A DNA stretch of 63,983 nt, filler included, from Stramenopiles sp. TOSAG23-6 (Eukaryota): assembly GCA_900128565.1 (NCBI GenBank). It is 3 parts of 3 records of this genome, joined end to end, with 100 filler letters (N's around TTAATTAATTAA, not from the genome) between each part and the next. Parts side by side here need not be neighbours in the genome. Positions count along the whole stretch, not along the records: positions 1 to 23,912 come from LT636008.1; 2 more parts are not named here. One strand, 5' to 3'. A model generated the notes under the pieces. It worked only from the letters and a program-made list of their open reading frames with translations, was not told the origin of the DNA and did no database searches. A program made the translations under genes and the position numbers. Position 1 is the stretch's first letter. Each line of letters starts with the position of its first letter. Positions 1-61,991 of this stretch are shown here, one piece after another.

Positions 1-23
1 TACAAATATACAGCAGGGAAATC

Positions 24-76
24 AAAATACACAAAATACACAAAATACACAAAATACATCACAAAATACACAAAAT
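24..76 (+). repeat. Short tandem repeat of (C)AAAATACA, about 5-6 units
   Basis: Reads aaaatacac aaaatacac aaaatacac aaaatacatc acaaaatacac aaaatat. Confidence 0.8.
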
Positions 77-1828: not shown

Positions 1829-2161
1829 TTTGTGGTTGCCAACTGAACTATTGACATATCTTAAGATATGATTGGTAAAAGCATGCATGATGATGACATG
1901 ATGTGGAAAAATAGAGAACTTTTGTTCAATTGTCAAATGTTTGTTAAAACAGTTGGTGAAGGTAATCTTATAAATAAAAGAGGTAAATGTTTTAAATGAA
2001 ACTGTAGTACGTACTACTAAGTATACCGTTTTATATAATAAATTAACAAATGAAGTATTGTAGCTGTATGGTCCTGCTGGGTATCACATTTCAGTGCCTA
2101 CACAATCATTTGCTATGCGTACGTGTACATCATGTAGTTTTAGTGTTGCTTGTTATTGTTG

Positions 2162-3049
2162 TTACCTCTTCTTCTTTTTCTTCTTAGAAGAAGAAGATTT
2201 CTTGGCTGTCTTCTTCTTGCCTGCTTTCTTGGCTTTGACTGGGCTGCCGTCCTTCCACTCCCCATCGTGGATTACTTTGCCTTTTTTATCCTTCTTGACG
2301 CCATAACCATGAAACTCGCCATCCTTATGGTCACCCACATACGTATTGCCGGTTTTTATCCAGTAGAACGTACCCTTGCCTTCTTGCTTGTCGTTAAAGT
2401 AGTCACCAACATACGTGTTACCACTTGCATGTATTTTGGAAAAACATTTCAAAAAATATATATTGTTAGGTACAAAGTTTCGTACGAAAAAAATATTAAA
2501 TTTGAAATTAAAAAAAACTAAAACATACATAAAGGTATATGAGCCCTTACCTTGGCGTTTATCATCCTTGTAGTCACCAACGAACTTGGCACCATCGACA
2601 TAGATCATGGTACCTTTACCTTCGCGTTTGGCATCCTTCCACCAGCCATCATATTTTGCTCCGCTCTTGTAGACCATCTCGCCCTTGGCATGGTACTTGC
2701 CATCCAACATGTTGCCAGTGTATTTAGAACCATCGTGCTCCTTGTACACGCCATGGCCGTTTGCAATGCCATCCTTCAATTCGCCTGCATATTCATCGCC
2801 ATTCGCCCAGCTCTTCTCGCCCTTACCATTCTTCACACCACCCTTAAATGTAAAAACGCCCCTGTAATCCTCCGTTCCGAGGTTCAACAGTGCCATCTGA
2901 GATGCTGTGTCTCTATCTTCCTTCGCTCTGATGTTTGCTTCCTCCGCTCTGATCTTGGCTTGGAGTTCGGCGGCCTCTTCATAGTTCTCTTCATCAACTG
3001 CCTTGTTTTTCGCTTCCCTGAGCGCTCTCAATATCGCTGAATCGGTCAT
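2162..3049 (-). CDS. MORN-repeat protein with N-terminal UVR-like motif and Lys-rich tail; one intron
   Basis: Repeats GxGxxxYxxGxxYxGxW/Y; AVDEENYEEAAELQAKI motif; the insert MYVLVFF...SKIH is an intron read in frame. Confidence 0.9.
   Translation of the reverse strand: MTDSAILRALREAKNKAVDEENYEEAAELQAKIRAEEANIRAKEDRDTASQMALLNLGTEDYRGVFTFKGGVKNGKGEKSWANGDEYAGELKDGIANGHGVYKEHDGSKYTGNMLDGKYHAKGEMVYKSGAKYDGWWKDAKREGKGTMIYVDGAKFVGDYKDDKRQGKGSYTFMYVLVFFNFKFNIFFVRNFVPNNIYFLKCFSKIHASGNTYVGDYFNDKQEGKGTFYWIKTGNTYVGDHKDGEFHGYGVKKDKKGKVIHDGEWKDGSPVKAKKAGKKKTAKKSSSSKKKKKKR
2429..2528 (-). other. Family intron in MORN gene (exact boundary ambiguous by 1-5 nt)
   Basis: GTATGT...CGTACGAAACTTTGTACCTAAC...TTTTCCAAAATACAT interrupts a MORN repeat. 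Confidence 0.8.
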
Positions 3050-3417
3050 GTTTTTGCTGTTGTTTGTATCTGGTTTGTATCTAAAAACTTAAAAGATCTT
3101 GTGATTAGATTAGTTACTAACAGTTACTAGTAGTAGTAGTCCTACGTGTAAGTGTCGTGGTCAAAAGATCGCAACCTAAAAGATATCGATCGGCGTATTT
3201 CGATTCGTACCATTTTTTTGTACGTAAAAACCGCTTCACGAATTTTCAATACGGATTTTGAAAAATCGAAAAGAGCAGAAACTATTTTTTTGACAGCCAT
3301 TCCCTTGGCCAGAGCGTCCATAATATTTTTGATTACCTTTGCGAATTGCAATAATATTAAACTGTATTACACATTGTGTCGCACACGATTTCCCCCTAAG
3401 GTTTTGCTGTTGCAAAG

Positions 3418-6400
3418 ATGGTACAATTCGGACACCAGTTAACTGCAAATGCCGTCGTCGAGTGGCAAAATCATTACATGGATTACAAACGTTTGAAGAA
3501 ACTGATTGTAGAAGTATGTCGAGGTCACCGTGAGCTCTTACAACAGCAGCAAGACGCCCCACAACGTTCCGTAGTCATACCATTGGCTGGAGACCATTCA
3601 GCTCCATCATCTTCAACGTCATTGTTGTCACATATACTTTCGCCTGCTCCTATCACCGCGAAGAGTAGTGATGACACTGTGGATGCAAAAATAGCTTCTG
3701 GAAATCAGGCATCGGATCTTGAGGAAACTTTCATAAGTGGTTGTCTTGAAGAAGTCCAAAAAGTCGATGAGTTCTTTATATCGAAGCTCCAAGAGTGTCG
3801 CGAACGATTAGAACTTTTGACAAATGTACAAGGGCATGAATCATTAATTGAAGATGAAATCGATGAAGATACAAATCTTCTCAAGGATAAAAAGGAACTT
3901 TCTAAGTCTGATTCATCGAAGTTGAAACTCATTGATAAAGAACGAAAGGCATATGAAGGTTCTATTCATCGTGCATGTACAGATTTGTATAGATGTATTT
4001 GTTTATTGGAAAATTTTGCTGTTTTAAATTTGACCGGATTCATTAAAATCTTAAAAAAATTTAAGAAAAATATGGTCAAGGTTGAGACAGAATATTTGTT
4101 GAAAAGAGAGAATACAAATTTTCATCGTAGTAAAAGCTACGGTAATCTTTACTCATCTATCCCGACTGCGCTACCACTATTATGTTCTGGTGGGAAAGAA
4201 GTAGCAAAATTAGTAATGGACAATGTGAGATCGCATTCTGTATTCTTTCATTATTCATTTCAAATTTGAAAAATTCAATTTTATTTTTTTTTAATTTTTT
4301 TATCCGAATCTGAAATTGTATATTGTTTTTCATACCTAACAAAAAAAAACAAATTTGACATATTTTTCATCAACACATTTTTCGCATCATGAAGATTCAA
4401 TTAAAGGTCTTTCAAATGATCTTGAAATATTATATGCAAATAAGTTTTGCGGAGGTGAGCGTTCTGTGGCTCGGGCGCTTTTGCTTGTACGTTGTCCNTT
4501 TTATTTTCAAAAAATTTTTTAAAACCCTGACCCTAAATTTTTTTTTAAACCCTAACCCTAAAATTTCATATGCCTAACAAATCTCAAATATGAAAACATA
4601 TTTTTTTACAATACTTGTAAAACAAAAACCAAAAAGTGACTGGTATATGTTTCGATCTGGTCTCCACTCAGGAATGCTTATAATTCTATTGTTTTGGGTC
4701 ATCTGGATTAATGTACGTTTTTTTTTAAATATGAAATTAATTTTTTTTCATACGAAATTCCGTACGTAACAAATTTCGAATTTGAAATATTTTTTCAAAT
4801 GCATGTAACTCCATTTAAAGAGACGGTATACGCTCTCATGGTGCATCCACTACTCCCTGTGTTTCGATTATTATTGTCTTGTGTATTAATTCAGTGGTGT
4901 TGTGGAATATCTGTTTATCTGTGGACCAAGTACTTATTTCTTATGAATTTCATTTTTTTATTTTTCATACGAAATTTTGTACCTAACGATTTTTCAAGTT
5001 TTTTTTTTGAAATATTTTTTCACAATACAATGCTCGTATTAATTATATATACTTATTCGGATTAGATCCAGAAAATTCTCTCACATATGAGCAGATATTT
5101 TATTCTGCAACAAACAACTCAATTTTACTCCTTGTATCGATTCTCTTATTTAGCAAGCTAAAAATAGAAAATATGTTTTTTCTCCATATATTATTGACTG
5201 GTATTGTTCCCTTGATGATCACATTTTGGTTAATTTATTTATGCCTCCATACAAAATGGAGTTGGAGAATAATTAAAGAAATTGGAAAAGTTTTTTTTGC
5301 TCCATTATTTCCTGTGACTTTTCTTTCGTCATTTATTGGTGATATTGCGACATCTCTAGTGAGGCCTTTAACAGATTTGGCATATACAGTATGTTATATG
5401 GGAAGTGGCGGATTCGTTCTTCATCATCAAGAATTATCTAAATCACACAATTTGATGGCTTGTACGTTTTCATCATGGGTTAGGGTTATCTTTTTATGTT
5501 TTCTTAGTTAGTTTTGTAGGTAACAAAACAAAATTTACAAAGAAAAAAAATAATATATATATATTTTCACAATATATGTACGTCATCAGACACATATACC
5601 AGAATCATTCTTCCTATTATTTGTTTTCTACCTTTGTGGCTTCGAATGCAACAAAATCTCCGAGTGTACTATGATACAAGAAAGCGCTGGCCATCAATGT
5701 ACGTGTTCATTTCAATTTTTTGTCTAAATTATTTTTCAAACGAAATTTTGTACGTAACAATTTTTTTTTGAAATATTTTTTCATAATCCATGGGTAATGC
5801 AATGAAGTATGCAGTATCACATGTAGTAGTCTTATTTGGTACGATGCATCCTATGTGGGCTAAGACAGATTATTCTCATGCAAACAGTTTTGAATGGGCA
5901 TGGATTACATCTTACTTGATTGCCACAATATATGCATTTCTTTGGGACATAAAAATGTACGTTTTCAAAATTGAATTTTGAATATTTTTTTCATAGAAAA
6001 TTTTGTACCTAACAATTTTTTATTAAAAAAATATTTTTCCAAAATACATGGATTGGGGTTTGCTTTCACGTCCGGATGGATTGCGAAAGCATTTAATGTT
6101 TGGTGTCAATAATCGACATCTTTATTATACTGCAATAGTATTTGATGCTTTAGGTCGTTTTATTTGGTGCCTTACTCTATTACCTGGCTCAAAATCTGTC
6201 GGTCATTTTCTTGAAACTCCAAATTATGTTTTTTTTCTATCTTGTTTAGGACCTCTTGAAATATTACGTCGCTGTATGTATGTTTTACTTTTTTTTTTGT
6301 ATGATTTTTTTTTCATACGAAATTTCGTACCTAACTTTTTTTTTCCATTAAAAAAAAAAAAAAATTCACATTATATGTGGTCTTGGTTTAGATTAGAACA

Positions 6401-6599
6401 AGAACATTTGCATAATACTATGGGATTCCGTAAAGTAAATTTTATTCCATTACATTTTGAGACGCCAGTCAAAAGAATGAGCAGGAAATCACATGATAGA
6501 GTCGCGGGAAAATCCGTATTTTTTGAGATGATTTTTGTTTTTGTTTTTGTAGTGACAATTTCTATTTATGCCGCATTTACTGGATCAAAAAACAGTTAA
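3418..6599 (+). CDS. XPR1: SPX-EXS phosphate exporter (XPR1/SYG1/PHO1 family), 9 exons: 3418-4239, 4379-4486, 4617-4712, 4805-4929, 5031-5461, 5578-5698, 5792-5956, 6050-6277, 6377-6599
   Basis: SPX start MVQFGHQL..EW...YMDYKRLKK and LNLTGFIKILKKFKK. EXS motifs WDIKMDWGL and EILRRCMWSWFRLEQEHL are restored after splicing, and all exon phases are consistent. Confidence 0.92.
4240..4378 (+). other. Intron 1 of SPX-EXS, GT...AT (139 nt)
   Basis: TCT|GTATTC...CATACCTAAC...CAACACAT|TTT TCG restores the frame. Confidence 0.75.
4487..4616 (+). other. Intron 2 of SPX-EXS, GT...TT (130 nt), containing CCCTAA repeats
   Basis: CTT|GTACGT...TGCCTAAC...ACAATACTT|GTA AAA gives ALLLVKQK. Confidence 0.75.
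4713..4804 (+). other. Intron 3 of SPX-EXS, GT...AT (92 nt)
   Basis: AAT|GTACGT...CATACGAAATTCCGTACGTAAC...TCAAATGCAT|GTA ACT. Confidence 0.8.
4930..5030 (+). other. Intron 4 of SPX-EXS, GT...AA (101 nt)
   Basis: ACC AA|GTACTT...GTACCTAAC...CACAATACAA|T GCT CGT ATT AAT TAT gives WTNARINYIYLFGLDP, which fits the EXS pattern W..xxINY..IF..DP. Confidence 0.8.
5462..5577 (+). other. Intron 5 of SPX-EXS, GT...AT (116 nt), diverged
   Basis: GCT T|GTACGT...GTAGGTAAC...CACAATATAT|GT ACG TCA; 7-nt direct repeat TGTACGT at the junctions. Confidence 0.75.
5699..5791 (+). other. Intron 6 of SPX-EXS, GT...AT (93 nt)
   Basis: TCA AT|GTACGT...GTACGTAAC...ATAATCCAT|G GGT AAT gives RWPSMGNAMKY. Confidence 0.85.
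5957..6049 (+). other. Intron 7 of SPX-EXS, GT...AT (93 nt)
   Basis: AAA AT|GTACGT...GTACCTAAC...CCAAAATACAT|G GAT TGG restores WDIKMDWGL exactly; no AG after the branch motif. Confidence 0.9.
6278..6376 (+). other. Intron 8 of SPX-EXS, GT...AT (99 nt)
   Basis: TGT AT|GTATGT...GTACCTAAC...CACATTATAT|G TGG restores RRCMWSWFRLE. Confidence 0.9.
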
Positions 6600-6687
6600 G
6601 GTTTTTTAAAATAATAAAGTACATTTTTTATATTTTTTTTGAATACTTTTTGTATAAACTCAACTTTCACACTATACTCCTCAAGAA

Positions 6688-8943
6688 CTACTTATGGACG
6701 CTTGGTTTGCACTGCTTTTTGTGTAATTTCCAGTGGATCCTTTGACATGTTTTAGAACAGTAAGCTACAGACTTACAACGCCCGCATTGGAAGAAATTAC
6801 ATTTATCTTCTTTTACTGTAGAACAATTCAAGCAGGCCATAATGGTACTACGCTTTAAGGCAGCAGTTCGCGAGTTATTTACTGGACCCCAGACGCTTAA
6901 ATGTTTCATATCCTCTACAACACTTGTTCTCCGTGCTTTTCGGAACCATTTTTGCGAAGTTTTCAAACATTTATTAACACCATGCCCTTCTCTATAGCAG
7001 ACACCCAACTGGAACTGTGCATCTAAATTATCTTGTTTCGCAGCCTTCTCAAACAGTTTTACTGCTTTTTCAATAGATTTAGTAACAACAGATCCTTCTT
7101 TATAGCAGATCCCTAAATGACATTGTGCTGCTGGATGGCCTTGTTTCGCAGCCTTTTCATAATACGCCACTGCAGTCTTTCGACATTTAGTAACTACTTC
7201 GCCCTTAGCGTAGAAAGCACCTACATTATACTGTGCATCTGAATTATCTTGTTCTGCAGCCTTTTCAAACCACTTAAATGCAGTCTTTGGACATTTACCT
7301 TCGCCAAAATAGTACAAATAGGCTAGAGCACACTGTGCCTCTGGATGACCTTGTTCTGCAGCCTTCTTATACCACTTAAATGCAGTCTTTGGACATTTAC
7401 TAACACTTTCGCCATAAAGGTAACAATAGCCTAGAGAGTACTGTGCCTCTGGTTGATCTTGTTCTGCAGCCTTCTTATACCACTTAAATGCAGTCTCTAG
7501 GCATTTATTAACACCCCAGCCATTGTAGTATGAATCAGCTAGAAACAACTGTGACAAATCATGACCTCGATTCGCAGCCTTTTCATACCAAATTGCAGCA
7601 GTCTTCAGCGATTTAGATACACCCTCGCCAGAATGGTAGCAGTTACCTGTATTATACTCTGACAATAAATGACCTTGTTCCGCAGCCTTTTCATATAACT
7701 CAGCTGCAGTCTTTAGACATTTTTGAACAACTTTACCTTCCTTATAACAGCAAGCTAGATTGTACTGTGCGAAGAAATAACCTTGTTTCGCTGACTTCGC
7801 ATACCACATTACTGCAGTCTCCATATTTTTATTAACACCACTACCATCCTCATATAGCCCAGCAAGACGACACTGTGCCACTCGACAGCCCTGTTCTGCA
7901 GCCTTTTCATACCACTTTGCTGCTGTTTTATAACAAGTGGCGAAATCATCCCCATACGTATCACCGACTGCGTGGCAGAGACCCAGTTGAAACTGTGCTT
8001 CCATACAACCCTGTTCCGCAGCCTTTTCATACCAAATTGCAGCAGTCTTCAGCGATTTAGATACACCCTCGTCACCATTATAGTAGAAATTACCACATTG
8101 AAGCTGGGCCATCTTACAGCCTTGTTCCGCAGCCTTTTCATACCAGTGCAATGCAGTTTTCATACATTTACTAACATTCATACCACCTTGATAGATAGTA
8201 GCTAGGTATAATTGTGCCTCTAACTGACCTTGTTCTGCCGACTTCTTATACCATGCTATCGCAGTCTCCATACATTGATCAATACCTTCCCCATCTGAAT
8301 AACAGCGACCGATATTATATTGGGCCACTGAATTACCTTGATTTGCAGCCTCCTTATACCAACCTGCTGCTTTTTCCAAGGACTTTGTAACACCCTTGCC
8401 TTCCGTGTAGTTTTGAGCAGTAACAACTTGTGCTGTTATATGACCTTGTTTCGCAGCTCTCTCAATCCAGTTTGCTGAGGTTGTTATATTTTTAGTAACA
8501 CCATCGCCTAATAAGTACCACTTTCCTAATTCATACATTGCCCTCGGAAACCCGTTTTCCGCAGCTTTCTTAACCCACTTTACTCCAGTCGTCTCATTTT
8601 TAGTAACACCATCGCCTTGAGAGTAGGCCATTCCTGTCCAGAACTGTGCATCTATGTGACCTTGTTCGGCAGCCTTCTCGAACCATTTGACTGCAGTTTT
8701 TGTACTTCTAGGTACACCTATTGCGCAACAATAGAATATGCCAATACGATACTCTGCTTCTATATGACCTTGATGCGCAGCCTTTTCAAGCCACCCAAAC
8801 GCAGTCTTTTGGCACTTACGAACACCTTGACCATTCTCATAGCAGCAAGCTAAAACAAACTGTGCCTCCATTTTACCTTCTTTCGCAGCGTCCATCAAAA
8901 CCGTCAAATCTTCATCATATATTTCATTAGTTGCACCAGTCAT
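6688..8943 (-). CDS. SEL1-like repeat protein with C-terminal MYND zinc finger
   Basis: About 17-18 repeats of AxxWYEKAAEQGxxxAQxxLG; C-terminal CLNC...CGRCKSVAYCSKTCQRIHWKLHKKQC. First ATG at 8943 (ORF track starts at a GTG at 8964). Confidence 0.92.
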   Translation of the reverse strand: MTGATNEIYDEDLTVLMDAAKEGKMEAQFVLACCYENGQGVRKCQKTAFGWLEKAAHQGHIEAEYRIGIFYCCAIGVPRSTKTAVKWFEKAAEQGHIDAQFWTGMAYSQGDGVTKNETTGVKWVKKAAENGFPRAMYELGKWYLLGDGVTKNITTSANWIERAAKQGHITAQVVTAQNYTEGKGVTKSLEKAAGWYKEAANQGNSVAQYNIGRCYSDGEGIDQCMETAIAWYKKSAEQGQLEAQLYLATIYQGGMNVSKCMKTALHWYEKAAEQGCKMAQLQCGNFYYNGDEGVSKSLKTAAIWYEKAAEQGCMEAQFQLGLCHAVGDTYGDDFATCYKTAAKWYEKAAEQGCRVAQCRLAGLYEDGSGVNKNMETAVMWYAKSAKQGYFFAQYNLACCYKEGKVVQKCLKTAAELYEKAAEQGHLLSEYNTGNCYHSGEGVSKSLKTAAIWYEKAANRGHDLSQLFLADSYYNGWGVNKCLETAFKWYKKAAEQDQPEAQYSLGYCYLYGESVSKCPKTAFKWYKKAAEQGHPEAQCALAYLYYFGEGKCPKTAFKWFEKAAEQDNSDAQYNVGAFYAKGEVVTKCRKTAVAYYEKAAKQGHPAAQCHLGICYKEGSVVTKSIEKAVKLFEKAAKQDNLDAQFQLGVCYREGHGVNKCLKTSQKWFRKARRTSVVEDMKHLSVWGPVNNSRTAALKRSTIMACLNCSTVKEDKCNFFQCGRCKSVAYCSKTCQRIHWKLHKKQCKPSVHK

Positions 8944-9084
8944 GATACCTTTACAAGCATACACGCCTAAGAGTTACTTTCCTTAAATAAATACGTCGTC
9001 GCGCAATAATATCTCTCGAGACTCGTGACTCGACCACCGTTTTGACTGACGTCCAATTCTCAATTCGCGCATTTGTACGTAAAG

Positions 9085-9096
9085 CCCTAACCCTAA
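9085..9096 (+). repeat. Interstitial (CCCTAA)2 telomere-like motif upstream of the SEL1 gene
   Basis: ccctaaccctaa. Confidence 0.6.
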
Positions 9097-9530
9097 TTGA
9101 TGTGTTGTTTGTATATGTATACCACTTTTCATATCATAATATTCTTTTAGATTTCTTCCGTTTTATTGCGTTTCATTGTTCATTGTAACCTTTCTTTCAA
9201 TTTTTTTTAAACTTTTGGTTTTTCTTTATTCTTCTCCATTATTATTATTAATGTTTTTTATTCGTCTTAGGATCAAATTACTAGTAATTTACCATGTGCA
9301 CGAAATCCGAAAAAAATGCAAGAGTAAAAAAAACAATATATTGGACTTTTTTTTTCGCTATGAGATTCGTACCATTTTTTCGTAAGTAAGTAACAACCTA
9401 ATAATAACGGACGAGGCGAATTACCTGACTACACGACTACACGAGTACTACTTTCTTCTAACGGTTGTTTTCATTTTTTTACTAAAACTAAGATTGAAAA
9501 GAACAGCATAAAATTTTACTTACTCCAACA

Positions 9531-10166: not shown

Positions 10167-10512
10167 AGATGAGGCCACAAAGCTCCGCGATAAAAAGATG
10201 AGGAAAACATCAGACTACCTGGGGATTCAATAGAATCACTGGATTAGGCCTCAAATCCTCAGCCAAAAAAAAAGAAAAACAAACAGAAAAATAAAATTAA
10301 AAAAAAAACAAGGGTGTTAAAAAAAATCGAAAATTTTTATCTTTTACTTACGTGTACTATGTATCTCTTTATTTATCTAGTTACATTCAATGTTGAAGTA
10401 TTATATATATGTAACTTTGTACATTTACCTCGTATATTTTTCAAATAATATATATTATTTGATATTATTCTTGTCCAAATATGGATTGCAGTATTTACCT
10501 CTACACACACTA

Positions 10513-11939: not shown

Positions 11940-11973
11940 ATGTGCTGTGAAAAAATATTTTTTCACAGCACAT

Positions 11974-13400
11974 GTACATGCACACATCAAACGTGTCATT
12001 GTAAGCGATTCATGTCAAATAATAAATGTGTGAATGAGTGTCCCATTGGAGAATGTATGTTTTATTTTTTTTCAAATTCGAATATATTTTTCATACGAAT
12101 TTTCGTACCTAACGAATTTTTTTTGAAGTATTTTTCCAAAATACATTTTCAGTTGAAGGTGTTTGTACTCCTTGTGGTAAATGTCCTATTGGTATGTACG
12201 CAGAAGGTTGCATAGGGGACCAGGATGTTATTTGCAAAGCATGTCATCAAGAATGTGGAGATAAAGGTTGTCGAGCATATGGAACAACTTTAAAAGAACA
12301 CTGTAATAATTGCTATAATGTTCGTTTCAATGGTAAGTGTGTATCAGAATGTCCAACTAACTATAGCGCAGTTCCAGCCAAGAGAGATGCTGAGTGTATG
12401 AAGGCTAAAGTGTGCTCTCGAGGATCCATACCAGGATCCCCAACTGTTGACACGTATAGATTTAAACCTGCTCTAACTCAGGTAGTCGTAAACAACGAAA
12501 AATTTACTGCAAAATTAGTGATTGAACCTGTAATTTGTAAACCGTGCACAACGTGTCAACTAGGAAAATATTGGGATAGAAAATGTATTGAAAATAGCAC
12601 TAATAGTACTACTAAAGTTTGTGGTGGTTGTACAGGTCGAGAAAAAGATAATTATCAAGACAGAAAATGTTCAATGTGCCATCCTTTATGTGGTAACGAC
12701 GGTTGTTCTGGACCAAATATTGATGATTGTTTAAATTGCAAATACGCTTTTGATCCATCTCAATTGAAATGTGTTAATAAATGTCCAAATGAAGGATTAG
12801 TGTATAGAAACAAGATGAAACTATTACGAAAGGCAAAAAAATGGTAAGACTTATAAAGATTATTTTTGCAAAGCGTGTACTTATTGTACACCTGGAACAG
12901 AAATCCAGCCTTGTACTTTAGAAGAAGATGCAAAATGTGAAACTTCACCTAGGATTGTTGAGACTGAAAATGTATTAGAATCCACAGAAAACTTAAAAAA
13001 ATCAAAAGAAGAAATAAAAGAAATAAAAGAATTAATGGAAATTAAAAAAATGAAAGAATTAATAAAAAAACCTAATTCAGAAAAAATATCAATAGAAAAG
13101 CGAATGAAAACAATTTCAGGAAGAGTAGTGAGTGTACAAAACGAAAGAATGAAAGCCATATCAGCTAATGTGTCGAGTATGTTTTCATTTCATTTCAATT
13201 GTTTTTTTTTCGTACGAAATTTTTTATCTAACAAATTTTGAATGTGAACTATTTTTCAAAATACAGGAGGAAATCAAGACAAGACATTTAATATTGTTGT
13301 ACTTGTTCTAGTAATACTACTTTTGTGTTTAAGTTGCTACTTATTATTTGTACTCCTGAGGACAACAAATGATTCAAATACAGTTAAAAATATAAAGTAG
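11974..13400 (+). CDS. Furin-like/TNFR Cys-rich type-I membrane protein, 5'-truncated at the palindrome centre; 2 introns and a probable homopolymer frameshift near 12835-12841
   Basis: CHxxCxxxGCxG..xxCxxC repeats; C-terminal TM segment FNIVVLVLVILLLCLSCYLLFVLL; stop at 13398-13400. Confidence 0.75.
12055..12146 (+). other. Family intron, GT...AT (92 nt); in-frame alternative CAG at 12152
   Basis: GAA T|GTATGT...CGTACCTAAC...CCAAAATACAT|TT TCA GTT. Confidence 0.75.
13177..13266 (+). other. Family intron with canonical GT...AG ends (90 nt)
   Basis: TCG A|GTATGT...CGTACGAAATTTTTTATCTAAC...TTTTTCAAAATACAG|GA GGA. Confidence 0.8.
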
Positions 13401-20863: not shown

Positions 20864-21751
20864 ATGACCGATTCAGCGATATTGAGAGCGCTCAGGGAAG
20901 CGAAAAACAAGGCAGTTGATGAAGAGAACTATGAAGAGGCCGCCGAACTCCAAGCCAAGATCAGAGCGGAGGAAGCAAACATCAGAGCGAAGGAAGATAG
21001 AGACACAGCATCTCAGATGGCACTGTTGAACCTCGGAACGGAGGATTACAGGGGCGTTTTTACATTTAAGGGTGGTGTGAAGAATGGTAAGGGCGAGAAG
21101 AGCTGGGCGAATGGCGATGAATATGCAGGCGAATTGAAGGATGGCATTGCAAACGGCCATGGCGTGTACAAGGAGCACGATGGTTCTAAATACACTGGCA
21201 ACATGTTGGATGGCAAGTACCATGCCAAGGGCGAGATGGTCTACAAGAGCGGAGCAAAATATGATGGCTGGTGGAAGGATGCCAAACGCGAAGGTAAAGG
21301 TACCATGATCTATGTCGATGGTGCCAAGTTCGTTGGTGACTACAAGGATGATAAACGCCAAGGTAAGGGCTCATATACCTTTATGTATGTTTTAGTTTTT
21401 TTTAATTTCAAATTTAATATTTTTTTCGTACGAAACTTTGTACCTAACAATATATATTTTTTGAAATGTTTTTCCAAAATACATGCAAGTGGTAACACGT
21501 ATGTTGGTGACTACTTTAACGACAAGCAAGAAGGCAAGGGTACGTTCTACTGGATAAAAACCGGCAATACGTATGTGGGTGACCATAAGGATGGCGAGTT
21601 TCATGGTTATGGCGTCAAGAAGGATAAAAAAGGCAAAGTAATCCACGATGGGGAGTGGAAGGACGGCAGCCCAGTCAAAGCCAAGAAAGCAGGCAAGAAG
21701 AAGACAGCCAAGAAATCTTCTTCTTCTAAGAAGAAAAAGAAGAAGAGGTAA
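20864..21751 (+). CDS. Mirror copy of the MORN-repeat gene (intron about 21385-21484)
   Basis: Identical to 2162-3049. Confidence 0.85.
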   Translation: MTDSAILRALREAKNKAVDEENYEEAAELQAKIRAEEANIRAKEDRDTASQMALLNLGTEDYRGVFTFKGGVKNGKGEKSWANGDEYAGELKDGIANGHGVYKEHDGSKYTGNMLDGKYHAKGEMVYKSGAKYDGWWKDAKREGKGTMIYVDGAKFVGDYKDDKRQGKGSYTFMYVLVFFNFKFNIFFVRNFVPNNIYFLKCFSKIHASGNTYVGDYFNDKQEGKGTFYWIKTGNTYVGDHKDGEFHGYGVKKDKKGKVIHDGEWKDGSPVKAKKAGKKKTAKKSSSSKKKKKKR

Positions 21752-29952: not shown

Positions 29953-31354
29953 ATGAAATCCGACTGTGTTTCAGATAGTGAAACTATGTGGAATAGTTTT
30001 GACGAGTTCGACTGTGTTGGAGCTTGTTTTTCAACTGAAATGTATGAAAATAAGCTTCGCGAAGAAGGAGAACGAGCGGCTGCTATAGACGCACAAAAAG
30101 CCCCAGAATGTTCAATATGCTTTGATGTACCAAAAGAAAAATGGGGATCTCTAGATTCGTGTGCGCATGATTTTTGTTATGACTGTATTATTCTCTGGTC
30201 AGAACGCCAAAACACTTGTCCCATATGTAAACTGAAATTTCATTTCATTAGAAAAACAGATAATCCACCAAGTCAGTCAAAAAAGCAGAACCCAAAGATT
30301 TACAAAAGGAGCATTCAGACTAAAAGTACAGCAATTACAAGGACTCCTTTACGCGATAATAATAATTGTTCCACTCGAGTCAAAAATAAAAATCAGCACA
30401 ATTCACCATCATATAACTTCAGTAGGAGGAGGGAACGTTTTCATCATGAATTTGATTTTTTTATAACAAAATCCTCCTAGAAAGTTTCGTATCTAATAAA
30501 TTTCGAACTTGGCATATTTTTTTATAACACATTCAAGCGATCCACGGCAATTGTCTCCTCTCCTTGCGGACGCTTTACATCGGTCAAGGAATCGCTCTCG
30601 TAATATTGCATCTTATATGTATCAAACACTCCATTCTGAAACTGTAGGTCGTCAGCGCACTACTAGGCGACATACCAGGGGACAAGCATTAGTTTCATCA
30701 GTAGGACTCCAAAATCATTCACAATTTGTATATACTTCAAATACCGTTAGAAATAATAATGAAAGTCATAGGAATAGAAATTCATCCATTTCAAATACCA
30801 TCAGAAATAATAATGAAAGTCATAGGAATAGAAATTCATCCATTTCAAATACAAGTCAAACAAATGAAATAGTAACTAATATAAACGGTGTCGGTATATC
30901 TGAAGAAGTTGCGCTACAGAGAGCTTTGGCAGCTAGTTTAAGTACAGCTTCAAATCAACATTTCACAAATGTAACAAACAAAGAAATTATAGATGTAATG
31001 AGTCCTGATTTAGTGCGTTGCAATAGTAACACTAACCCTAATCAAACAAATCGAAATTGTTTTGGTAGGAATTTTGATACAGATTCAATTTCGAAACAAC
31101 AAAAACATTCTTCAGAATGTGCTAATGATACAAGAGGGAAATGGTTACGTAATCCACGTTCTAACCTTAACCCTAATTCTGTACCAAATCCATTACCTGA
31201 TATTGACAGATCTTGTCAAAAAAATAGGGTAGGGTTGTCAAGTTCTGACTCCGATAGCACCGTCATCTCTTTTAGTAGTAGTAGTGCTTTAAGTAATGAT
31301 GAAAATGATGCAGACTTAATGACAAGATTAGCCCGGAAATCGTTGAAGAAGTAG
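29953..31354 (+). CDS. RING-finger (C3HC4) E3 ligase-like protein with UIM motif; one intron
   Basis: CSIC...CAHDFCYDCI..W...NTCPICK; SEEVALQRALAASL. The two ORFs are joined by a family intron. Confidence 0.8.
30433..30532 (+). other. Diverged family intron with apparent GA...AT ends (100 nt)
   Basis: AGG|GAACGTTTTCATC...TTTCGTATCTAAT...TATTTTTTTATAACACAT|TCA AGC joins the two ORFs in frame. Confidence 0.6.
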
Positions 31355-35968: not shown

Positions 35969-38450
35969 ATGAATTTCTCAGACTCGTCCGAATCGTCGGA
36001 TAGTTTTGAATCTGATGATTTTGAGATTTCAGATAGCTCCGAGGGTTCTGTTCAACGTGGTTTGGCCAAACTTGACAAACATCTTGCTGGAAATAGTTTT
36101 ATGCAAGGTCGTAAAATGTCTGAAGATGACGTTGAACTAAAGAATATTACCGCGAAAAAAGACCAAATGTTGGCGGATCAAAGAGAAATCACTGAGGCGG
36201 CAATATCTTTGGAAGCAACCTTACGTCAGCGCAAAGAAGAAACAACCTTACTTCAGCGCAAAGAAGAAAGTAATGAAAATAGATTAGAATCTAAAGAAAT
36301 AGAAAATGATAGAATCGATGCAGCCATTAGAATACAGTCACTGGGACGTGGTCGACGAGTAAGACGGCAAAGAGCAGAACTTTATCAGCAAAGGGTGAAG
36401 ACAAAAGCTTCGATTAAATTACAGTCGTTTACGCGAGGTTGTCAAGGGAGGAATGCAGCAAATGCTCGAAATTGTAAAGTTCTAGAGGAGAAAAACACAG
36501 CTGCATTACAAATACAGGCTATTCGACGAGGATATGTCGGAAGAATTGAAGTTGCAGAAAAACGTAAATTACAGCACGAAAGGAATAACGCTGCTATAAA
36601 ACTTCAATCTTTGACACGTGGTCACCATGATAGAAATTTAAGTGAACAAATGCTTTTATATCAAAAGAAATCTCAGAACAATGCAGCAACACAAATACAA
36701 GCTGTTCATCGAGGTAACCAGGGAAGAAAAGAAACATTTGACTTAGCCATTTCTCAGAGAGAAAGAGAGAGAGAAAGAGAAGTTGCTGTAATAAAATTGC
36801 AATCTACTACTCGTGGCCATCAAAGAAGAAAAAAAAAGGATATACAAAAATTAAAACATCAATATAAACAAACACAATCTGCGACTAAAATTCAAGCAAT
36901 GAATCGTGGGCGTATAGCAAGAAGCAAAGCAAACGAAAAGCGAAGAGTCCGCGATACCGAAAAAAAACTTGCTAAATATATATCAAAAGTTAAAATGCTT
37001 GAAATCAAATTAAAAACTGAAAAAGAGTCAAAGAAAGTTTTACAGCAACAAGTGAAATCAGCCGAAAATCGTGCTAATATTCACGCAAGTCAAGTGGCAA
37101 TTCTTAGAAAAGAAACAGTTTTCCTAAGAGGGAAACTATTACGTGTTTCTGACAATAATCCAAAGCCGAAGCAAAATAATCAAAAGTCAATAAAGTCATA
37201 CAAACAAAATAAACGATTTGAGATGGAAAATAATGAAAAATCTCGAAAATTGAAGCATTCACATCAAAATAACCAGAGACCTACGACCAAAAGAAAAAAG
37301 GAGAAAAATAAATATTTTCCACAAGTATATAAAAAAAAAACAAATGTAAAACAAAGTGTACGTTTTCAAAATTGAATTTCAATTTTTTTTTCATACGAAA
37401 TTCCGTACCTAAATATTTTTTTGAATAATATTTTTCACAATGCATGTACAATTTCCTCAAATTCAAGAGAATCAACCTAAAACTGGCAAGGGTATCCTTT
37501 CAGAGTCACTTTTATCTGAATCTAATGAGCTGGACGAATCAAAAAAGTATAAACAGACACGAAAGACAAGACTCGACAGTCAAGTTAGCAGATCTGAAGA
37601 AGAAGCTCGTATGAAAATAAAACATAGAAATGAAGAGAAAGAAAAACAAATTTGCCAATTGCAACTTAAACTACTACAAGAAGAAAACAAAGGGAAGAAA
37701 ACAAAGAAAGAATTAGATCAATTACAGCATCAGCTTGATAGGATAAAACAAGATCAAATAGTGGCAATCCAAACTAAAAGAGAAGAAGAAATAAATAGAC
37801 GAAATCTGAGAGATAGTAATATCGCCAATATTGGTGCACTTCGAGATAATATGTTCATGTACTGTCTCTCTGAAAAGATCAGGGAACGCCAGATTAACCA
37901 AAATCGTTTATTAAAGTGCATCAATATGCATAAAAGTGAAATGCAAGAAGTAGAAAAAATAAATAAAACACGGATATTAGAATGTGTAAATACGCATAAA
38001 AAAGAAATACAAGAACTAGAAAAAAAAAATAAAAAGCACTTGTCCAAAGTTGTCAGTTTACACAAAAACGAAATACAGGAATTAGAAAATTCAAATACAA
38101 AACAATTAAAGGATTATATGAGTTCGCATACAAAAGAAGTAGCTGAGCTAAATTGTAGAATATTGGATTTACAAATTCCTAAAGAAAAAGAATCGAATAA
38201 TTCTGAAATTGAAGAATTACAAAGTAAAATTATTCAAATGGAAAATGAAGCACAAGAAAAAACTCGCCTTCTAAACTCCAAAATCGCGGCTGTTGTGGCG
38301 AAAAACCATGAAAATATAAAGCAAATCCGAAAAGAATCAAATATTGCTCTTGCTGCAGCTTCAAAGCAATTACTTTTGTCAAATTCAGAAAGAACTAGGC
38401 TTTTGGGTGATTTAAAACAAAATTCGTGTAGCAAATGTAATGAAGTATAA
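35969..38450 (+). CDS. IQ calmodulin-binding-motif and coiled-coil protein; one intron
   Basis: About 7 AAxxIQxxxRG motifs; the two ORFs are joined in frame by the intron. Confidence 0.8.
37358..37445 (+). other. Family intron, GT...AT (88 nt)
   Basis: AGT|GTACGT...CATACGAAATTCCGTACCTAAAT...CACAATGCAT|GTA CAA. Confidence 0.8.
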
Positions 38451-41500: not shown

Positions 41501-42186
41501 TTATCTGATAGATCTAAATGTGTGACACTAACATTCTTATTATCTTCTAATGCTCTTGTGATGCGTTGTGGAAAATATTTCATAGAAAAAAAATCATTAG
41601 GTACAAACTTTGGCACGAAAAAAAAAATAAATTTGAAATTCATGATGAAAACGTACATGGCAGCTGCACCAGTATCACCTATATTATTTGACCGAAGGAT
41701 AATTGTTGTTACAGTTTCGTTAGTACGAAGTTTTTCAGCAAGTTTCAAAGCACCATCAGCTCCAATATCTAACCATGTTAAATCTATTTTACGAGCACCT
41801 TTCGCAAGAATGTCAATGATATCATTTACCTTGTTCGTACCAGTAGATGCCTGATAGTCGTGAAGAGTACAATATCGTTTTGACGCAGTGATAGTTTGCA
41901 TTTTTTTACTAACACTAATTGGTAAGGATGTTAGAACTGACCGAAGCTTAGGTGATAGACACATACGATCTTGCTTTATTCTTGGCTTTGGAGACCTCTG
42001 ACTCGACGAGGGCCAATCTTTTATGGCGCCCAGTGTTCTTGTTGAAATTCTAACTTTGATTTCACGTTTTGTCTCTTTGACAAGTAACTCACTTTCAATA
42101 TTTTTTTCATCTTGATTGAATTCGTTTTTTTGCCTATTAGCACGAGCCTTTCGCCGTGCATCTCGTCTCTCTTTCGCCGAAGACAT
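38521..42186 (-). CDS. RNI-like leucine-rich-repeat protein with long repetitive charged C-terminus; one intron
   Basis: LRSNNIGDTGA, LDLSDNNIGDEG and LDISGNDMTSLGA motifs; internal tandem repeats containing N bases. Confidence 0.8.
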   Translation of the reverse strand: MSSAKERRDARRKARANRQKNEFNQDEKNIESELLVKETKREIKVRISTRTLGAIKDWPSSSQRSPKPRIKQDRMCLSPKLRSVLTSLPISVSKKMQTITASKRYCTLHDYQASTGTNKVNDIIDILAKGARKIDLTWLDIGADGALKLAEKLRTNETVTTIILRSNNIGDTGAAAMYVFIMNFKFIFFFVPKFVPNDFFSMKYFPQRITRALEDNKNVSVTHLDLSDNNIGDEGIKAITMSLIKNTKKMVHTKNGVKKTNTIKTKDKLPLGRQLRVLDISGNDMTSLGASFLTDGLQKIFKDENSIDYYNDTDHPNPNPNDTDHSINEEENKSSTIETISENIIKVSPRLNSHEYLKRFAGTNSLELRWAGNKFMPLTIASKLGKYKMRNPEAPPDRTNSQNLNSNLTGNTNDIFSIDRQTISSTIAIYNDSFGVSYDILCQIVDHRPFAISKFTQEKMDTKSKELNIEEAKDSEYVEKIKTIERKKTTEQQIKWDPSFKKRIDDIVAQRAKVKSIKTKLQKLNTVKENDNLXDENLDDWKLKNGRWVNEGVNSXDNISTKPKVKEVKNXNNENLDDENLDDWKLKNGRWVYEGVNSTDNISTKPKVKEVKNVNNENLDDENLEDWELKNGRWVKEKDGNWVRERVSGKDNTKIDHNKKANTHQEFEEDPDRNIHCVEDIDEIKALAKPSAKDGIIEKHYPLKPSLQLPGIKKKLSEDEIFNDKLGDSEVSSKIKQKDNIAADQLNSKIASILSDRRKTHIDDGVAASRMLAVFFASAFNRDDKKHIPNSSNVSKTTDNHDTPSLSQPDKESKMXKLKEEXLKHEKEVXIXQNEKDAMRVXHNKNLKDEDKTISTPKRKIPEXXDXXXXXXEXVKTKINEAKRXAXAEGNPLKXGAAEMLTVFFASAFNSNDKKYISNLSNDSNTTDNDDTDNDDTPSLSQEDKESRVSQLNEESFIDKSEDSDSETYARNSGSTTKDNDDSKVKVQNAPISEKNTKVGDKVTTPNKQLGNNNNEEILTFDTGLEEYMRKFAALEKQMGTINSDEIHFIAANQEEDEIFVQETLEDAAFNVTSDKYVTPVALNTLEIFFEAAGLNTFKHVSTASFTSEFSNHDRCVKNINTSYLSKAVKSVPVETPANTVHEETPVNAVLQNTPAIIVPEETSNMIPSENEYISSPRQKKKGFLKRLFRATSSRIEKTRSSISNEVSHIVHITRRENDIH
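41561..41656 (-). other. Family intron, GT...AT (96 nt)
   Basis: GCC AT|GTACGT...GTACCTAAT...CCACAACGCAT|C ACA restores the LRR helix GAAAITRALEDN. Confidence 0.87.
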
Positions 42187-46232: not shown

Positions 46233-47142
46233 ATGTTACGTTCATTCACACATGGTACTAGACTAACTGTTACAAACATATCCAGTGTTTTTCGTGGAGT
46301 TTCTACTTCTTCCAACTCTCCTGTTTTGCAACTCAACAGGGAGGTCAGGGAGGCACTTGACGCAAGCAAGCCTGTTGTAGCTTTAGAGTCTACGATTATT
46401 TCACATGGTATGCCATATCCACAAAATGCTGAGACGGCTATTGCCGTTGAACAAATTGTCCGTGATGGTGGAGCAACTCCTGCTACTATTGCAATTTTGG
46501 ATGGAAAAATTCACGTAGGTCTCACAAACGATCTTCTTGATGAACTCGCGCGATCCGGAAAGTCAGTGCAAAAATGTTCAAGGCGCGATTTACCTGTCGT
46601 TATGGCACAAAAACGTCATGGCGCAACTACTGTCGCTGCAACAATGTACATCGCTCATTTAGCTGGAATTGATGTATTTGTGACGGGGGGAATTGGTGGT
46701 GTACACCGAGGAGTGGAAGAAACTTTAGATATTTCTGCTGATCTCACAGAACTTGGGAAAACACCCGTAGCAGTTGTTTGTGCAGGAGTTAAATCAATTT
46801 TAGATATTCCTCGCACGTTAGAAGTGTTGGAAACACAAGGTGTTCCAGTGATGACTCTTGGTGCAAATAACTTTCCGGCTTTTTTTTCTCCTGACTCTGG
46901 TATACAATGTAAGAAACCTACATTCATTTCAGATTTCAATTTTCAATTTTCAATTTGTTTTCGTACGAAATTTTGTACCTAACAAAAAACAAAAAAACAA
47001 AAAAACAAAAAAGATTTGTTTTTTGACATTTACGTTTTCATCATTCATTGTCAAATCTAATGAATTTCAAATTTGAGTTTGTTTTTACTCCACATCACCA
47101 TATACAATTGACTCAGAAATAGAAGCTGCTGCTGCTATATAT
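46233..47142 (+). CDS. psuG: Pseudouridine-5'-phosphate glycosidase, partial (3' end lost at the contig end); likely mitochondrial presequence
   Basis: [47 protein letters not shown]. The spliced exon continues [16 protein letters not shown]. Confidence 0.92.
46909..47095 (+). other. Intron GT...AT (187 nt), apparently a compound of two family units
   Basis: CAA T|GTAAGA...GTACCTAAC...GACATT-TACGTTTTCATC...TCTAAT...ACTCCACAT|CA CCA. Confidence 0.75.
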
Positions 47143-47199
47143 GCATGTTTTATTTTTTTTCAAATTCGATTTTTTTTTCGTACGAAATTTCGTACCTAA
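47143..47199 (+). other. Partial family intron with GC donor, truncated by the gap
   Basis: TAT|GCATGTTTT...CGTACGAAATTTCGTACCTAA. Confidence 0.7.
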
Positions 47200-47299: not shown

Positions 47300-47353
47300 G
47301 TACGAAATTTTGTACCTAACGATTTTTTTTTGAAATATTTTTCCAAAATACAT
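47300..47353 (+). other. Partial family intron (3' half) ending CCAAAATACAT
   Basis: GTACGAAATTTTGTACCTAAC...GAAATATTTTTCCAAAATACAT precedes the QTRT exon. Confidence 0.75.
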
Positions 47354-47944
47354 TAGAGCAGCTACAGATAATCTACCTAAAGATAAGATTCGTGTACTCC
47401 GCGGTATGTTCCGACCATCTGAAGCAATTACAGCTGTTGTTGAGTGTGGTATAGATGTAGTAGAATCTGGATATCCAGTCATTCTTACTGAACGTGGAAG
47501 AGCGTTAGTGACACCATTATTCGAAGATAATGATGATGGCACTCAGGAAATTCGAAATCCATTCGATATGAAATTTGAACAAGTAAAAAATCACTCTATT
47601 AATTTATGGGATAGACGTTATAGAACAGATATGAGGCCTTTGGTCGATGGGTGTAAATGCTATGCTTGTGAGCGACACACTCGTGCATACATTCATCATT
47701 TACTTCGGACAAATGAAATGCTCGGACAAATATTGCTATATGTATGTTTTATTTTTTTTTTTACAAAAAAATCGAATTTATTTTCGTACGAAATTTTGTA
47801 CCTAACGTTTTTTTTTTGAAATATTTTTCCAAAATACATACACATAATTTACATCGCTATATTAGTATGTTTTCTGATTTACGTCTTGCTATTCAAAGTG
47901 GTAAAACAGAAAATATTCAAGAAATACAAAACCGATTTGAGTAA
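47354..47944 (+). CDS. QTRT2: Queuine tRNA-ribosyltransferase family protein (likely accessory subunit), C-terminal part; one complete intron
   Basis: GIDVVESGYP; PLVDGCKCYACERHTRAYIHHLLRTNEMLGQILLY|THNLHRY. Confidence 0.85.
47742..47839 (+). other. Family intron, GT...AT (98 nt)
   Basis: TAT|GTATGT...GTACCTAAC...CCAAAATACAT|ACA CAT AAT restores LLxxHNL; no AG within the intron. Confidence 0.9.
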
Positions 47945-59762: not shown

Positions 59763-61991
59763 ATGCTTCCGTCAGCACTCATAGCACGCATCATTTGCTA
59801 CAATGTTGCAACAACTGAGGATGCTGCAAAACTACGGCAAGTAAGTAGTAACTTCAAAGATAGGATCATACCAATGGCGTTAAATGACGCGGTGCTCTCG
59901 TTAAAACCTTGTGGTGAAGACAGTTTTGTGTCGGACCTTATGGACAAGGACGGAGAGTTACAGCTCAATTGTGGTGATTCAGTCTCGATGGCACGAAGAG
60001 ATATATATCTCGACCTGATTTTTCCTGGTTGCACGTGCAAATCCATTCACATTGTAGGTCCTTGTTTTAAAAAATATAACTTGGATTGTGAACTTCTTGA
60101 GGGATCTAGACCACCTTTGATTCATGAATTATGCAATGCAACGACATGTGAGGAGTTCTTAGAAGCCGCTGGAAAAGTTCTCGATAAAGACGCTTACAAT
60201 CCAGATCCATCCTCGGAACCATTGAATCCAGATTTTCCGTTGACCGATCCAGCCGAATATATGAGTAATCACATACCTGTTCTAGCTAAATATTGGGTCC
60301 CCTTTGATTCACCAGCGCTTGTCGAAGGTCCTCCTCCTGACTTATCAGATTTAAATCATGAGATACGCCTCAAGTCAGGAAATAAAGACATGTATGAATA
60401 CATTGATCAAGATCAAGAAGATTCTTTTGATGATCATGGTTTGTATTTACCTTATAGACATCGTGGTTGTACCTACAGTTGTGCTATTTTAAAACAGTCA
60501 GAACAAGTTAAACAAACAGAACATTTGAATAGTGAAGGAATGCTAGTGGGTGTCTTGCTAATTTTAGAAGCTAATTCTGAATACGTCGAGTATGAATTGG
60601 ATATAAGTAATTCACCTTATTTCTCTGATGTAGTTAACAAACACCAACGTAAATATGTATGTTTTATTTTTTTTTAAATTTCAATTTTTTTTTCATACGA
60701 AATTTTATACCTAACAATTTTTTTAGATTTTTTTTGAAATATTTTTCCAAAAATACATGCACGAGAAGGAGTAGGTATTTTGGATAGCGCAGTGCCAGTA
60801 GAACTAGCTTCAAAACTTCGCCAGCAGCTAAATGAGTTGGCATGCAAGCAACATCCTTGGGGTATTGATTATCATCCCCATTCCAATAACATTGTTGTTG
60901 ACATTGTGCACCCAGCGCTTTACTGTTACGTTAAAAATGAAACACAAACAAATGCCAAAAGTCAATCGCTTCCTCAGAGCAAAACAGATGAAAGACAATA
61001 TGATTCTTGGGGGCGTCCATATGAAACCTCTCGATACCAATGGTTACCAACAGAATTTTTTATCATTGATGATGGTCGAGTTTCCATTGATGGATATATA
61101 AATAATCTTGTACCTCGAGAGACATATGAACAGCTTTATAAAAATTTACAAAATTTGTTTTCACATTGCATTCCACTTATTGAAGCAGTGTATTCTTATG
61201 GTTGTGCTGTACGAGAGCAATTGCGTTCTGAAGAAGATGAGATGGATTTTAATGATTCTAAACCAGAGCCTATTCACCCTTCTCATTGTTCACTTCATGG
61301 TAGACAACTGCAAGTGATAACCAAAATAGTTGATTATGAGTTGTCACCAGGGCAGTCTTACGAAGGTGTATGGCACGTGGAAGGAATGAGTCATGAAGAA
61401 ATTGTTGCTACTGTCATTTGGGTAGCTGAACGTGATGATGATCTGGAGGGTGGAGATTTGCTTTTTAAACGTGCATTTTTAAAGAATGAAGCCGAATTTA
61501 TCTTTTCTACTGTGGCGTCAGATCGTCATTCTGTATTAAATGATATCATTGATGAAGGATTAGTTCCATTAGGTCGCATTACAACTCCACGTGGACGCCT
61601 CCTGTGTTTTCCCAACAGTATGTTTTATTTTTTTTTTGTATGAATTTTTTTTTCATAGGAAATTTTGTACCTAACAATTTTTTTTCAAACTTTTTTTTAA
61701 ATATTTTTCGAAAATACATGCCATGTTCATAAAGTAACGCGACTTTTGAATAAAAATAAAGAAAATGATGATGCAACGAGTGAAAAGGCAAGGCGACGTA
61801 TCGTGGTGTTTTTCATTATAAATCCTGATAAGCGGATAGTATCAACAGCAGATATTTCACCGCAGCAAAAGGTTGCCGGTGGACATATGTCACGAAATGA
61901 AGCATTGGACAATCGGCTCAAATTGATGCAGGAACGAAAATACGCCAAGCAAGATTGGAATGTCCGGGAGATTGAGTTATGTGAGCATTAA
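59763..61991 (+). CDS. DUF4246-like (2OG-Fe(II) oxygenase-like) protein; exons 59763-60656, 60759-61617, 61720-61991
   Basis: DYHPHS...DIVHPALY; YQWLPTEF; YINNL; LQVITKI; YEGVWHVEG..HEEIVAT; GRLLCFPNSHVHKV; RRIVVFFIINP. Confidence 0.85.
60657..60758 (+). other. Family intron, GT...AT (102 nt)
   Basis: TAT|GTATGT...ATACCTAAC...CCAAAAATACAT|GCA; contains an in-frame stop. Confidence 0.82.
61618..61719 (+). other. Family intron, GT...AT (102 nt)
   Basis: AAC A|GTATGT...GTACCTAAC...CGAAAATACAT|GC CAT gives FPNSHVHKV. Confidence 0.85.

Follow-up and report, generated by a model that had tools for sequence, protein, structure and literature searches.

Direct repeats at the junctions of a family of look-alike, putatively GT...AT introns in a stramenopile genome

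Eighteen distinct introns of one ~100-base family were found across ten genes, named by Pfam or by their open frames, in 63,983 nucleotides of DNA (hereafter the window) from the Stramenopiles sp. TOSAG23-6 genome assembly GCA_900128565.1. The junctions of these introns with their exons carry short direct repeats, which are real and lie well beyond chance. Most of the repeat excess is a shared context, AT/GTAYGT...CAT/G (the slash marks the exon-intron boundary), and a copy-specific part remains beyond it. Taken as a whole, the observations are best explained, tentatively and with somewhat less than even confidence, as copies of one introner-like, mobile-element-derived intron that is cut as GT...AT and bears junction repeats in two layers. 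The family bears on the origin of new introns and on the rigidity of the AG rule.

The intron family and its junction repeats

The introns were catalogued from a family profile search, boundary listings and one composite intron, and their boundaries were placed by family alignment and reading frame. All 18 come from one 52-kb unique stretch, and eight lie in a single SPX-EXS gene (Table 1). Family copies give profile E-values from 2e-23 to 1e-2, and the core motif occurs 20 times in the window versus 0.47 expected. The host genes are unrelated (SPX-EXS, MORN, RING, IQ, LRR, Indigoidine_A, QTRT2-like and DUF4246 among them), and partial cores occur outside coding sequence. The pattern by which introners are recognized, many look-alike introns in unrelated genes, is thus present in 18 introns and 10 genes.

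The copies share a layout in which a yeast-like donor, GTAYGT, precedes a stretch rich in T, a palindrome (CRTACGAAATTTYGTAC) that continues into a CTAAC-like box, a second T-rich stretch and a 3' end of the form ...CAAAATACAT, conserved as ...A(C/T)AT. The donor dinucleotide is GT in 17 of the 18 introns and GA in the other, while the intron closes with AT in 15 cases and with AG, AA and TT once each. A branch-like box resembling (G)TACCTAAC is found by pattern in 14 of the introns, at 35-46 bases from the intron end in 13 of these and at 65 bases in intron H.

Short direct repeats at the junctions, together with an AT/G proto-splice site, had been reported in a first-pass annotation made from the sequence alone, and its exon counts were reproduced exactly. 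The upstream exon ends in AT at 10 of 18 introns (8.9% expected, p = 7e-7) and the downstream exon starts with G at 11 of 18 (20.4% expected, p = 2e-4). All six of the longer repeats that it listed are present, namely CTTGTA (4487), ATGTA (4713), CAA (4930), TGTACGT (5462), TATGT (6278) and TGTAC (37358), and the AA and TT acceptors, at 5030 and 4616 respectively, do copy the last two bases of the upstream exon. Exons starting with GTA number four of 18 against 1.3% expected (p = 8e-5), or four of the 11 that start with G (p = 0.004).

The annotation had proposed comparing the length of these repeats, genome-wide, with what base composition predicts; the comparison was made within the window, using 20,000 draws of random sites from its 39,146 coding bases. 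The summed junction-repeat length is 55 bases, versus 12.0 +/- 4.1 at random coding sites, and none of the 20,000 draws reached 55. The window is AT-rich eukaryotic DNA (G+C 29-41%), in which short AT-containing matches are common. Even so, chance repeats from AT-rich composition have practically no probability as an explanation and are refuted within the window by the draws and by the AT and G enrichments given above.

The shared consensus was separated from any copy-specific link by pairing donor junctions with the acceptors of other introns, which keeps the former and breaks the latter. Repeat bases per intron were 3.06 as observed versus 2.42 after re-pairing (p = 0.0009 for total length); by side, the left gave p = 0.0036 and the right p = 0.16. 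The exon-end and intron-end dinucleotides are the same in 12 of 18 introns versus 8.5 after re-pairing (p = 0.0024), and two of the three non-AT acceptors (AA and TT) match the exon end (p = 0.0068).

Cut register and splicing signals

The junction repeats make the cut register ambiguous in most introns, as the annotation had pointed out. The same mRNA results under a -1 shift in 15 of 18 introns, under a -2 shift in 12 and under a +1 shift in 11, and only one intron is free of ambiguity. The sole junction at which homology decides is 61618-61719 in the DUF4246 gene, for which 120 homologues were aligned, 119 of them at the site. Removal as GT...AT yields F-P-N-S-H; 119 of 119 homologues have this N and 105 the S, whereas a -1 shift gives N-C (C in 14 homologues) and a -2 shift, with its ...AC end, places K on the invariant N. 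These products are the ones that the annotation had predicted for this junction, and the uniform ...AC end that it kept as an alternative is excluded there. Homology is silent on the register at 4240, 30433, 37358 and 13177, whose regions are unconserved, and at 5462, where two registers are synonymous. All eight SPX-EXS junctions are gapless against the homologue P0122; that at 4240 is register-informative but lies in such an unconserved region.

The termini are better conserved in the GT register. It keeps GT in 17 of 18 introns and AT in 15; shifted by -2, the introns would end in AC in 12 of 18 and begin with any of eight dinucleotides. Both donor variants, GA and GC, align on the GT position, and the sole AG acceptor in the family (13266) aligns exactly with the AT of the other copies. 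These points favour removal as GT...AT, which homology shows at one junction and which is the probable register of the rest.

A true cut shifted by two bases would make these NN...AC introns, mostly AT-AC, spliced perhaps in a minor-spliceosome-like manner, and the repeats would then be a matter of misplaced register. This is very improbable. It would draw on the 12 of 18 introns in which both registers give the same mRNA and on the 12 of 18 in which ...AC precedes the last two bases, and an intron start A with an end C is a known workable pair. The U12-type introns of Physarum polycephalum are also reported to tolerate GT-AT, AT-AA and AT-AT ends (10.1101/2020.10.12.336362). Set against these points are the Lys that would replace the invariant Asn at 61618-61719, the eight forms that the start dinucleotide would take, the position of the single AG acceptor in the GT register and the count of RTATCCTT donors, which is zero of 18.

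The U12-type donor (G/A)TATCCTT was found in none of the 18 introns, the nearest being GTATTCTTT at 4240. The U12-type branch motif TTCCTTRAC was not found near the 3' end, where the family has instead its CTAAC-like box, mostly 35-46 bases from the end. U12-type termini were likewise not found, AT-AC being ruled out as a register at 61618-61719 and the AG of GT-AG occurring once in 18. The canonical U2-type GT-AG class is matched by the donor (GT in 17 of 18) and by the box (14 of 18), yet AG closes only one of the 18 introns; in four of the 14 box-bearing introns an upstream AG between the box and the intron end is passed over. Nonconventional introns of the Amoebophrya or euglenid type have pairing inverted repeats of 8-20 bases, and terminal pairing here reaches at most about 7 bases.

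Origin of the junction repeats

In the preferred explanation, the family would consist of copies of one introner-like element that was probably once mobile. The first layer of the repeats, which the counts above show, is a preferred exon context in which the element sits, AT/G and often AT/GTA. Since this context resembles the element's joined ends (...CAT + GTAYGT), most introns are flanked by a direct repeat of 2-5 bases. The second layer, for which support is moderate, would be a 2-base target duplication (AT, rarely AA or TT) whose downstream copy forms the last two intron bases. Splicing out the element together with one target copy would restore the original coding sequence.

At the junctions the exons carry ancestral coding sequence, as in the Met codons split AT/G at three junctions, the L/V flanking intron I, which is identical in P0122, and the C-T coded by exonic TGT ACG at intron F, which is shared with P0122. 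The context therefore belongs to the target. Exon ends that are one base off AT, at 5462 (a synonymous site) and at 4240 and 37358 (unconserved regions), are compatible with later change. The two abutting copies at 46909-47095 fit AT/GTA, the 5' junction of an existing copy, as a favoured target. AT reads the same on both strands, so that AT...AT could be either a direct repeat or an extension of the inverted termini (ATGTA...TACAT); only the introns in which AA is paired with AA and TT with TT tell the two apart, and both read as direct repeats.

The annotation had further claimed that the repeats are target-site duplications that donate a splice site, which is borne out in part. The dinucleotide match in 12 of 18 introns versus 8.5, and the AA and TT pairs, speak for it, but it does not stand as a general rule, given the three introns that have no left repeat and the ancestral exon bases at 61618. 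Among single accounts of the copy-specific signal, duplication is the best; it is partly supported, but neither proven nor universal.

Several observations weigh against this explanation, and some of them are what would be expected had there been no duplication. In that alternative, which is a real if lesser possibility, both ends (GT...AT) come with the element, which inserts or is only tolerated at AT/G(TA); the exon context would reflect a preference in targeting or in splicing (a proto-splice site), and the AA and TT pairs would be single-substitution coincidences. Five introns end in AT without an AT-ending exon and none shows the reverse, so that AT looks element-borne or kept by selection. 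No left repeat at all is present at 61618, 30433 and 13177. The CA that ends the exon at 61618 is ancestral (N and S conserved in 119 and 105 of 119 homologues), so the AT acceptor that is kept there cannot be a target copy. Re-paired junctions alone yield 2.42 of the 3.06 repeat bases per intron, and the copy-specific signal comes from two introns, both in one gene, whose AA and TT are each one substitution from AT. The exon context is also one-sided, as an RNA-level or selective cause predicts: C at -3 occurs in four of 18 introns and is not enriched, which indicates no palindromic target, and DDE transposases usually show palindromic targets. The excess of dinucleotide matches over re-pairing (p = 0.0024) and the two of three non-AT acceptors that equal the exon end (p = 0.0068) count against an origin without duplication.

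Further observations count against the preferred explanation. Repeat lengths range from 0 to 7, and the longer ones extend on the right side (G, GTA, GTAC, GTACGT), which is not the product of a fixed-length duplication. The terminal inverted repeats, GTAT...ATAC, comprise 4 bases, or 6 including the flanking AT. RNA folds of six copies form terminal stems in some, with z from -2.14 to +0.80 versus shuffles and none clearly better. Neither a transposase nor an empty site was seen within the data examined. Contigs from three seawater metatranscriptome runs (small shares) were aligned on 12001-23912, and among the joints listed for them no clean spliced joint was found, the joints running between different copies.

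The variable repeat lengths are predicted by homology-guided integration, in which an excised or circular copy, with the joint ...CAT+GTAYGT, would enter matching sites via reverse splicing or microhomology-mediated repair. Each repeat is a substring of the joined ends, the right side reaches GTA, GTAC or GTACGT in four of 18 introns (p = 0.004 given G), the right-side exon bases are ancestral coding sequence, two copies abut at zero spacing and the context is strand-specific. Homology-guided integration is nevertheless rather unlikely. It leaves unexplained the change of the acceptor to AA or TT along with the exon, the right-side excess rests on four introns and has p = 0.16 under re-pairing, and no circular or reverse-transcribed form was seen.

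Rejected target models include a palindromic TAC-AT-GTA target, for which C at -3 was counted in only four of 18 introns. A 3-base ATG duplication and a duplication lying outside ATGTA...TACAT were compared by eye, and neither suits more copies than the 2-base reading.

Returning to the 2-base duplication, it is conceivable, if doubtful, that the 3' cut is not recognized by a dinucleotide but measured as two bases past the element's ...TAC end, in which case any 2-base target duplication (AT, AA, TT or AG) would serve as the acceptor. If this is true, the major-type spliceosome of this stramenopile would not depend on AG at an entire class of self-spreading introns, whose acceptor would be written by the transposition itself.

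The notion that a transposon brings one splice site and a target duplication the other is already in print for Micromonas and Fritillaria, as described in PMC11282704. According to that source, the introners of Micromonas pusilla (IE1) bring the 5' splice site, a 3-base target duplication supplies the canonical AG, and splicing of the element plus one duplicated copy restores the original sequence. The present family resembles IE1 in having many look-alike short introns in unrelated genes and in that a short junction duplication can supply the 3' splice site. It differs in that the duplication is at most 2 bases, mostly AT, with a non-canonical end, whereas IE1 is described with 3 bases, AG and clear adjoining terminal inverted repeats; here the inverted termini span 4-6 bases and three of 18 copies lack the duplication. 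The non-canonical introns of the tunicate Fritillaria borealis (Henriet et al. 2019, as cited in PMC11282704) repeat an exonic TAC at the 3' end to give an ...AC acceptor, have AG-AC or AG-AT ends, and were proposed to stem from a miniature inverted-repeat transposable element (MITE). In Fritillaria and in the present family alike, exon sequence before the intron is repeated at the intron 3' end and forms a non-AG acceptor; unlike the non-GT donor reported for Fritillaria, the donor here is a strong GTAYGT, with an AT end.

Boundary-overlapping repeats, an ambiguous cut, non-canonical acceptors and repeated intron families are shared with the introners of Amoebophrya, for which direct repeats of 3-5 bases over the exon/intron boundaries are reported (Farhat et al. 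2021, PMC7789003). Those introns are described with an inverted-repeat hairpin of 8-20 bases and no dominant dinucleotide, whereas pairing here does not exceed about 7 bases, and the dominant ends are GT (17 of 18) and AT (15 of 18). For the U12-type introns of Physarum, a transposon origin with a TA duplication and short inverted ends has been proposed, and GT-AT is given as 17% of the non-canonical pairs (10.1101/2020.10.12.336362). A proposed transposon origin with short inverted termini and a palindromic 2-base direct repeat (TA in Physarum, AT here), together with the occurrence of GT-AT ends, is common to both. In Physarum the donor is (G/A)TATC(C/T)TT and the branch motif stands 9-12 bases before the intron end; here the donor is GTAYGT and the CTAAC-like box lies 35-46 bases before it. 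The family is set apart by strong major-type signals combined with an AT end, by very short inverted ends and by inconsistent duplication. If a 2-base target copy truly becomes the acceptor, the Micromonas and Fritillaria route would extend to a non-AG end in introns with textbook major-type signals. No paper describing this intron family was found in literature searches; in the stramenopile single-cell genome paper PMC5778133, the word 'splice' occurs 0 times and 'intron' twice, both times in the methods.

Individual copies, RNA contigs and assembly

The 18 introns and two half copies, the latter outside the paired statistics, are listed in Table 1.

Table 1 Positions, host genes and junctions of the family copies in the window. 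Repeat lengths to the left and right of the boundary are given for introns F and M; a slash marks the exon-intron boundary.
Copy	Host gene	Position (strand)	Mirror copy	Ends and junction
J	SPX-EXS	4240..4378 (+)	19535-19673 (-)	Diverged copy; donor GTATTC, end AT; exon end CT; repeat T only
I	SPX-EXS	4487..4616 (+)	19297-19426	End TT, exon end TT; repeat CTTGTA; CCCTAA repeats replace family core
H	SPX-EXS	4713..4804 (+)	19109-19200	GT...AT; repeat ATGTA
G	SPX-EXS	4930..5030 (+)	18883-18983	End AA, exon end AA; repeat CAA
F	SPX-EXS	5462..5577 (+)	18336-18451	GT...AT; exon end TT; repeat TGTACGT (1 left + 6 right)
E	SPX-EXS	5699..5791 (+)	18122-18214	GT...AT; repeat ATG; splits Met codon AT/G, conserved in P0122
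D	SPX-EXS	5957..6049 (+)	17864-17956	GT...AT; repeat ATG; splits Met codon, conserved in P0122 and P0123
C	SPX-EXS	6278..6376 (+)	17537-17635	GT...AT; repeat TATGT; 99 bases
A	Cys-rich repeat gene	12055..12146 (+)	11767-11858 (-)	AT/GT...AT
B		13177..13266 (+)	10647-10736 (-)	Sole copy with canonical AG; exon end GA; left repeat none
K	MORN-repeat gene	21385..21484 (+)	2429-2528 (-)	AT/GT...AT/G; 100 bases as assembled
L	RING-finger gene	30433..30532 (+)		Diverged; donor GA, end AT; exon end GG; junction repeat none
M	IQ-motif gene	37358..37445 (+)		GT...AT; exon end GT; repeat TGTAC (1 left + 4 right)
N	LRR_6 gene	41561..41656 (-)		GT...AT; repeat CAT
P (composite)	Pseudouridine-5'-phosphate glycosidase-like (Indigoidine_A) gene	46909..47095 (+)		187 bases; exon end AT, intron end AT
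Q (half copy)	Contig end	47143..47199 (+)		Exon ...AT, then donor GCATGT
R (half copy)	Next contig start; next exon in QTRT2-like gene	47300..47353 (+)		End ...ATACAT; next exon starts T
S	QTRT2-like (queuine tRNA-ribosyltransferase subunit) gene	47742..47839 (+)		AT/GT...AT; repeat AT
V	DUF4246 gene	60657..60758 (+)		AT/GT...AT/G; repeat ATG
W	DUF4246 gene	61618..61719 (+)		Near-consensus copy; exon end CA, intron end AT; register-deciding junction

In composite intron P two family copies adjoin directly, head to tail and without an intervening exon. The first has 121 bases (GTAAGA...GACAT) and the second 66 (TTACGT...CCACAT); in the second copy GT has changed to TT and the core is deleted. 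Removal of intron K as assembled shifts the frame of the MORN gene. At 21380-21384, just before the donor, the assembly has two letters more than the contigs of two of the RNA runs, and with the shorter sequence at 21380 the intron is GT...AT in frame. Beside intron A, a canonical AG (TTTCAG, 12147-12152) lies six bases past the AT end, and the frame of the Cys-rich repeat is kept by either acceptor. At intron S, the upstream exon aligns with solved structures to its very end, and the 33-residue downstream exon alone matched nothing. The best homologues of the DUF4246 gene are diatom proteins with 50-56% identity.

A public coding sequence (P0121), compared with window positions 17300-20500, is identical over the exons, but at several of the eight SPX-EXS junctions it runs on into the intron or leaves out the end of an exon; public gene models of this organism thus mishandle the family. 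Standard gene finders fail on genes bearing these introns, and gene counts and pseudogene calls in such assemblies may therefore be wrong. Intron C (6278-6376) is stop-free in the exon frame; an open frame at 6027-6599 passes straight through it, and an annotation based on open reading frames would translate the intron.

The metatranscriptome contigs aligned on 12001-23912 pile up on the intron repeats, with a summed depth of about 300-2,000 versus about 1-5 on exons, so the family sequence is abundant in the RNA libraries. Many loci, unspliced RNA, stable excised introns or carried-over DNA could each be the cause. Some contigs run unspliced through the donors at 13177 and 21385, and loose contig ends start at 12053/12054, showing that similarity between copies begins at AT/GT of intron A. 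A metagenome scan with the core pattern returned 22 loci, of which only one, on another record (L018), matches the family profile beyond the core; this copy has the same AT/GT...ACAT/G layout. The pattern was also found at 5 loci in genome contigs, all in records of prokaryotic metagenome-assembled genomes and taken as chance matches without profile comparison, and at 0 loci in viral contigs. Rfam searches at gathering thresholds gave zero matches in the window.

Bases 1-23912 form a perfect palindrome of 23.9 kb: they match their reverse complement at 100% identity, with the centre at 11956/11957 and no spacer. It ends at an N linker, and every gene and intron inside it is doubled; since 1-11956 repeats 11957-23912, each intron there was counted once. 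The palindrome probably reflects a chimera formed in amplification or assembly, not biology. Two linkers (23913-24012 and 47200-47299), each composed of 44 N, TTAATTAATTAA (12 bases) and a further 44 N, show that the window is made of several contigs placed one after another. On either side of the second linker, the contig breaks within a family intron copy.

Partial cores without either terminus lie outside coding exons at 45853-45946 (+), 51750-51864 (-), 28796-28812 (+) and 48858-48892 (+). Three of the four lie just downstream of genes and share their orientation, and the fourth runs antisense within a long open frame. Telomere-like CCCTAA/TTAGGG repeats occur at 4530-4566 and 5474-5489, in two SPX-EXS introns where they replace the family core, at 14815-14838 (intergenic), and near the end of metagenome contig L018 (1-150), which bears the additional family copy. 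These repeats might mark repaired breaks.

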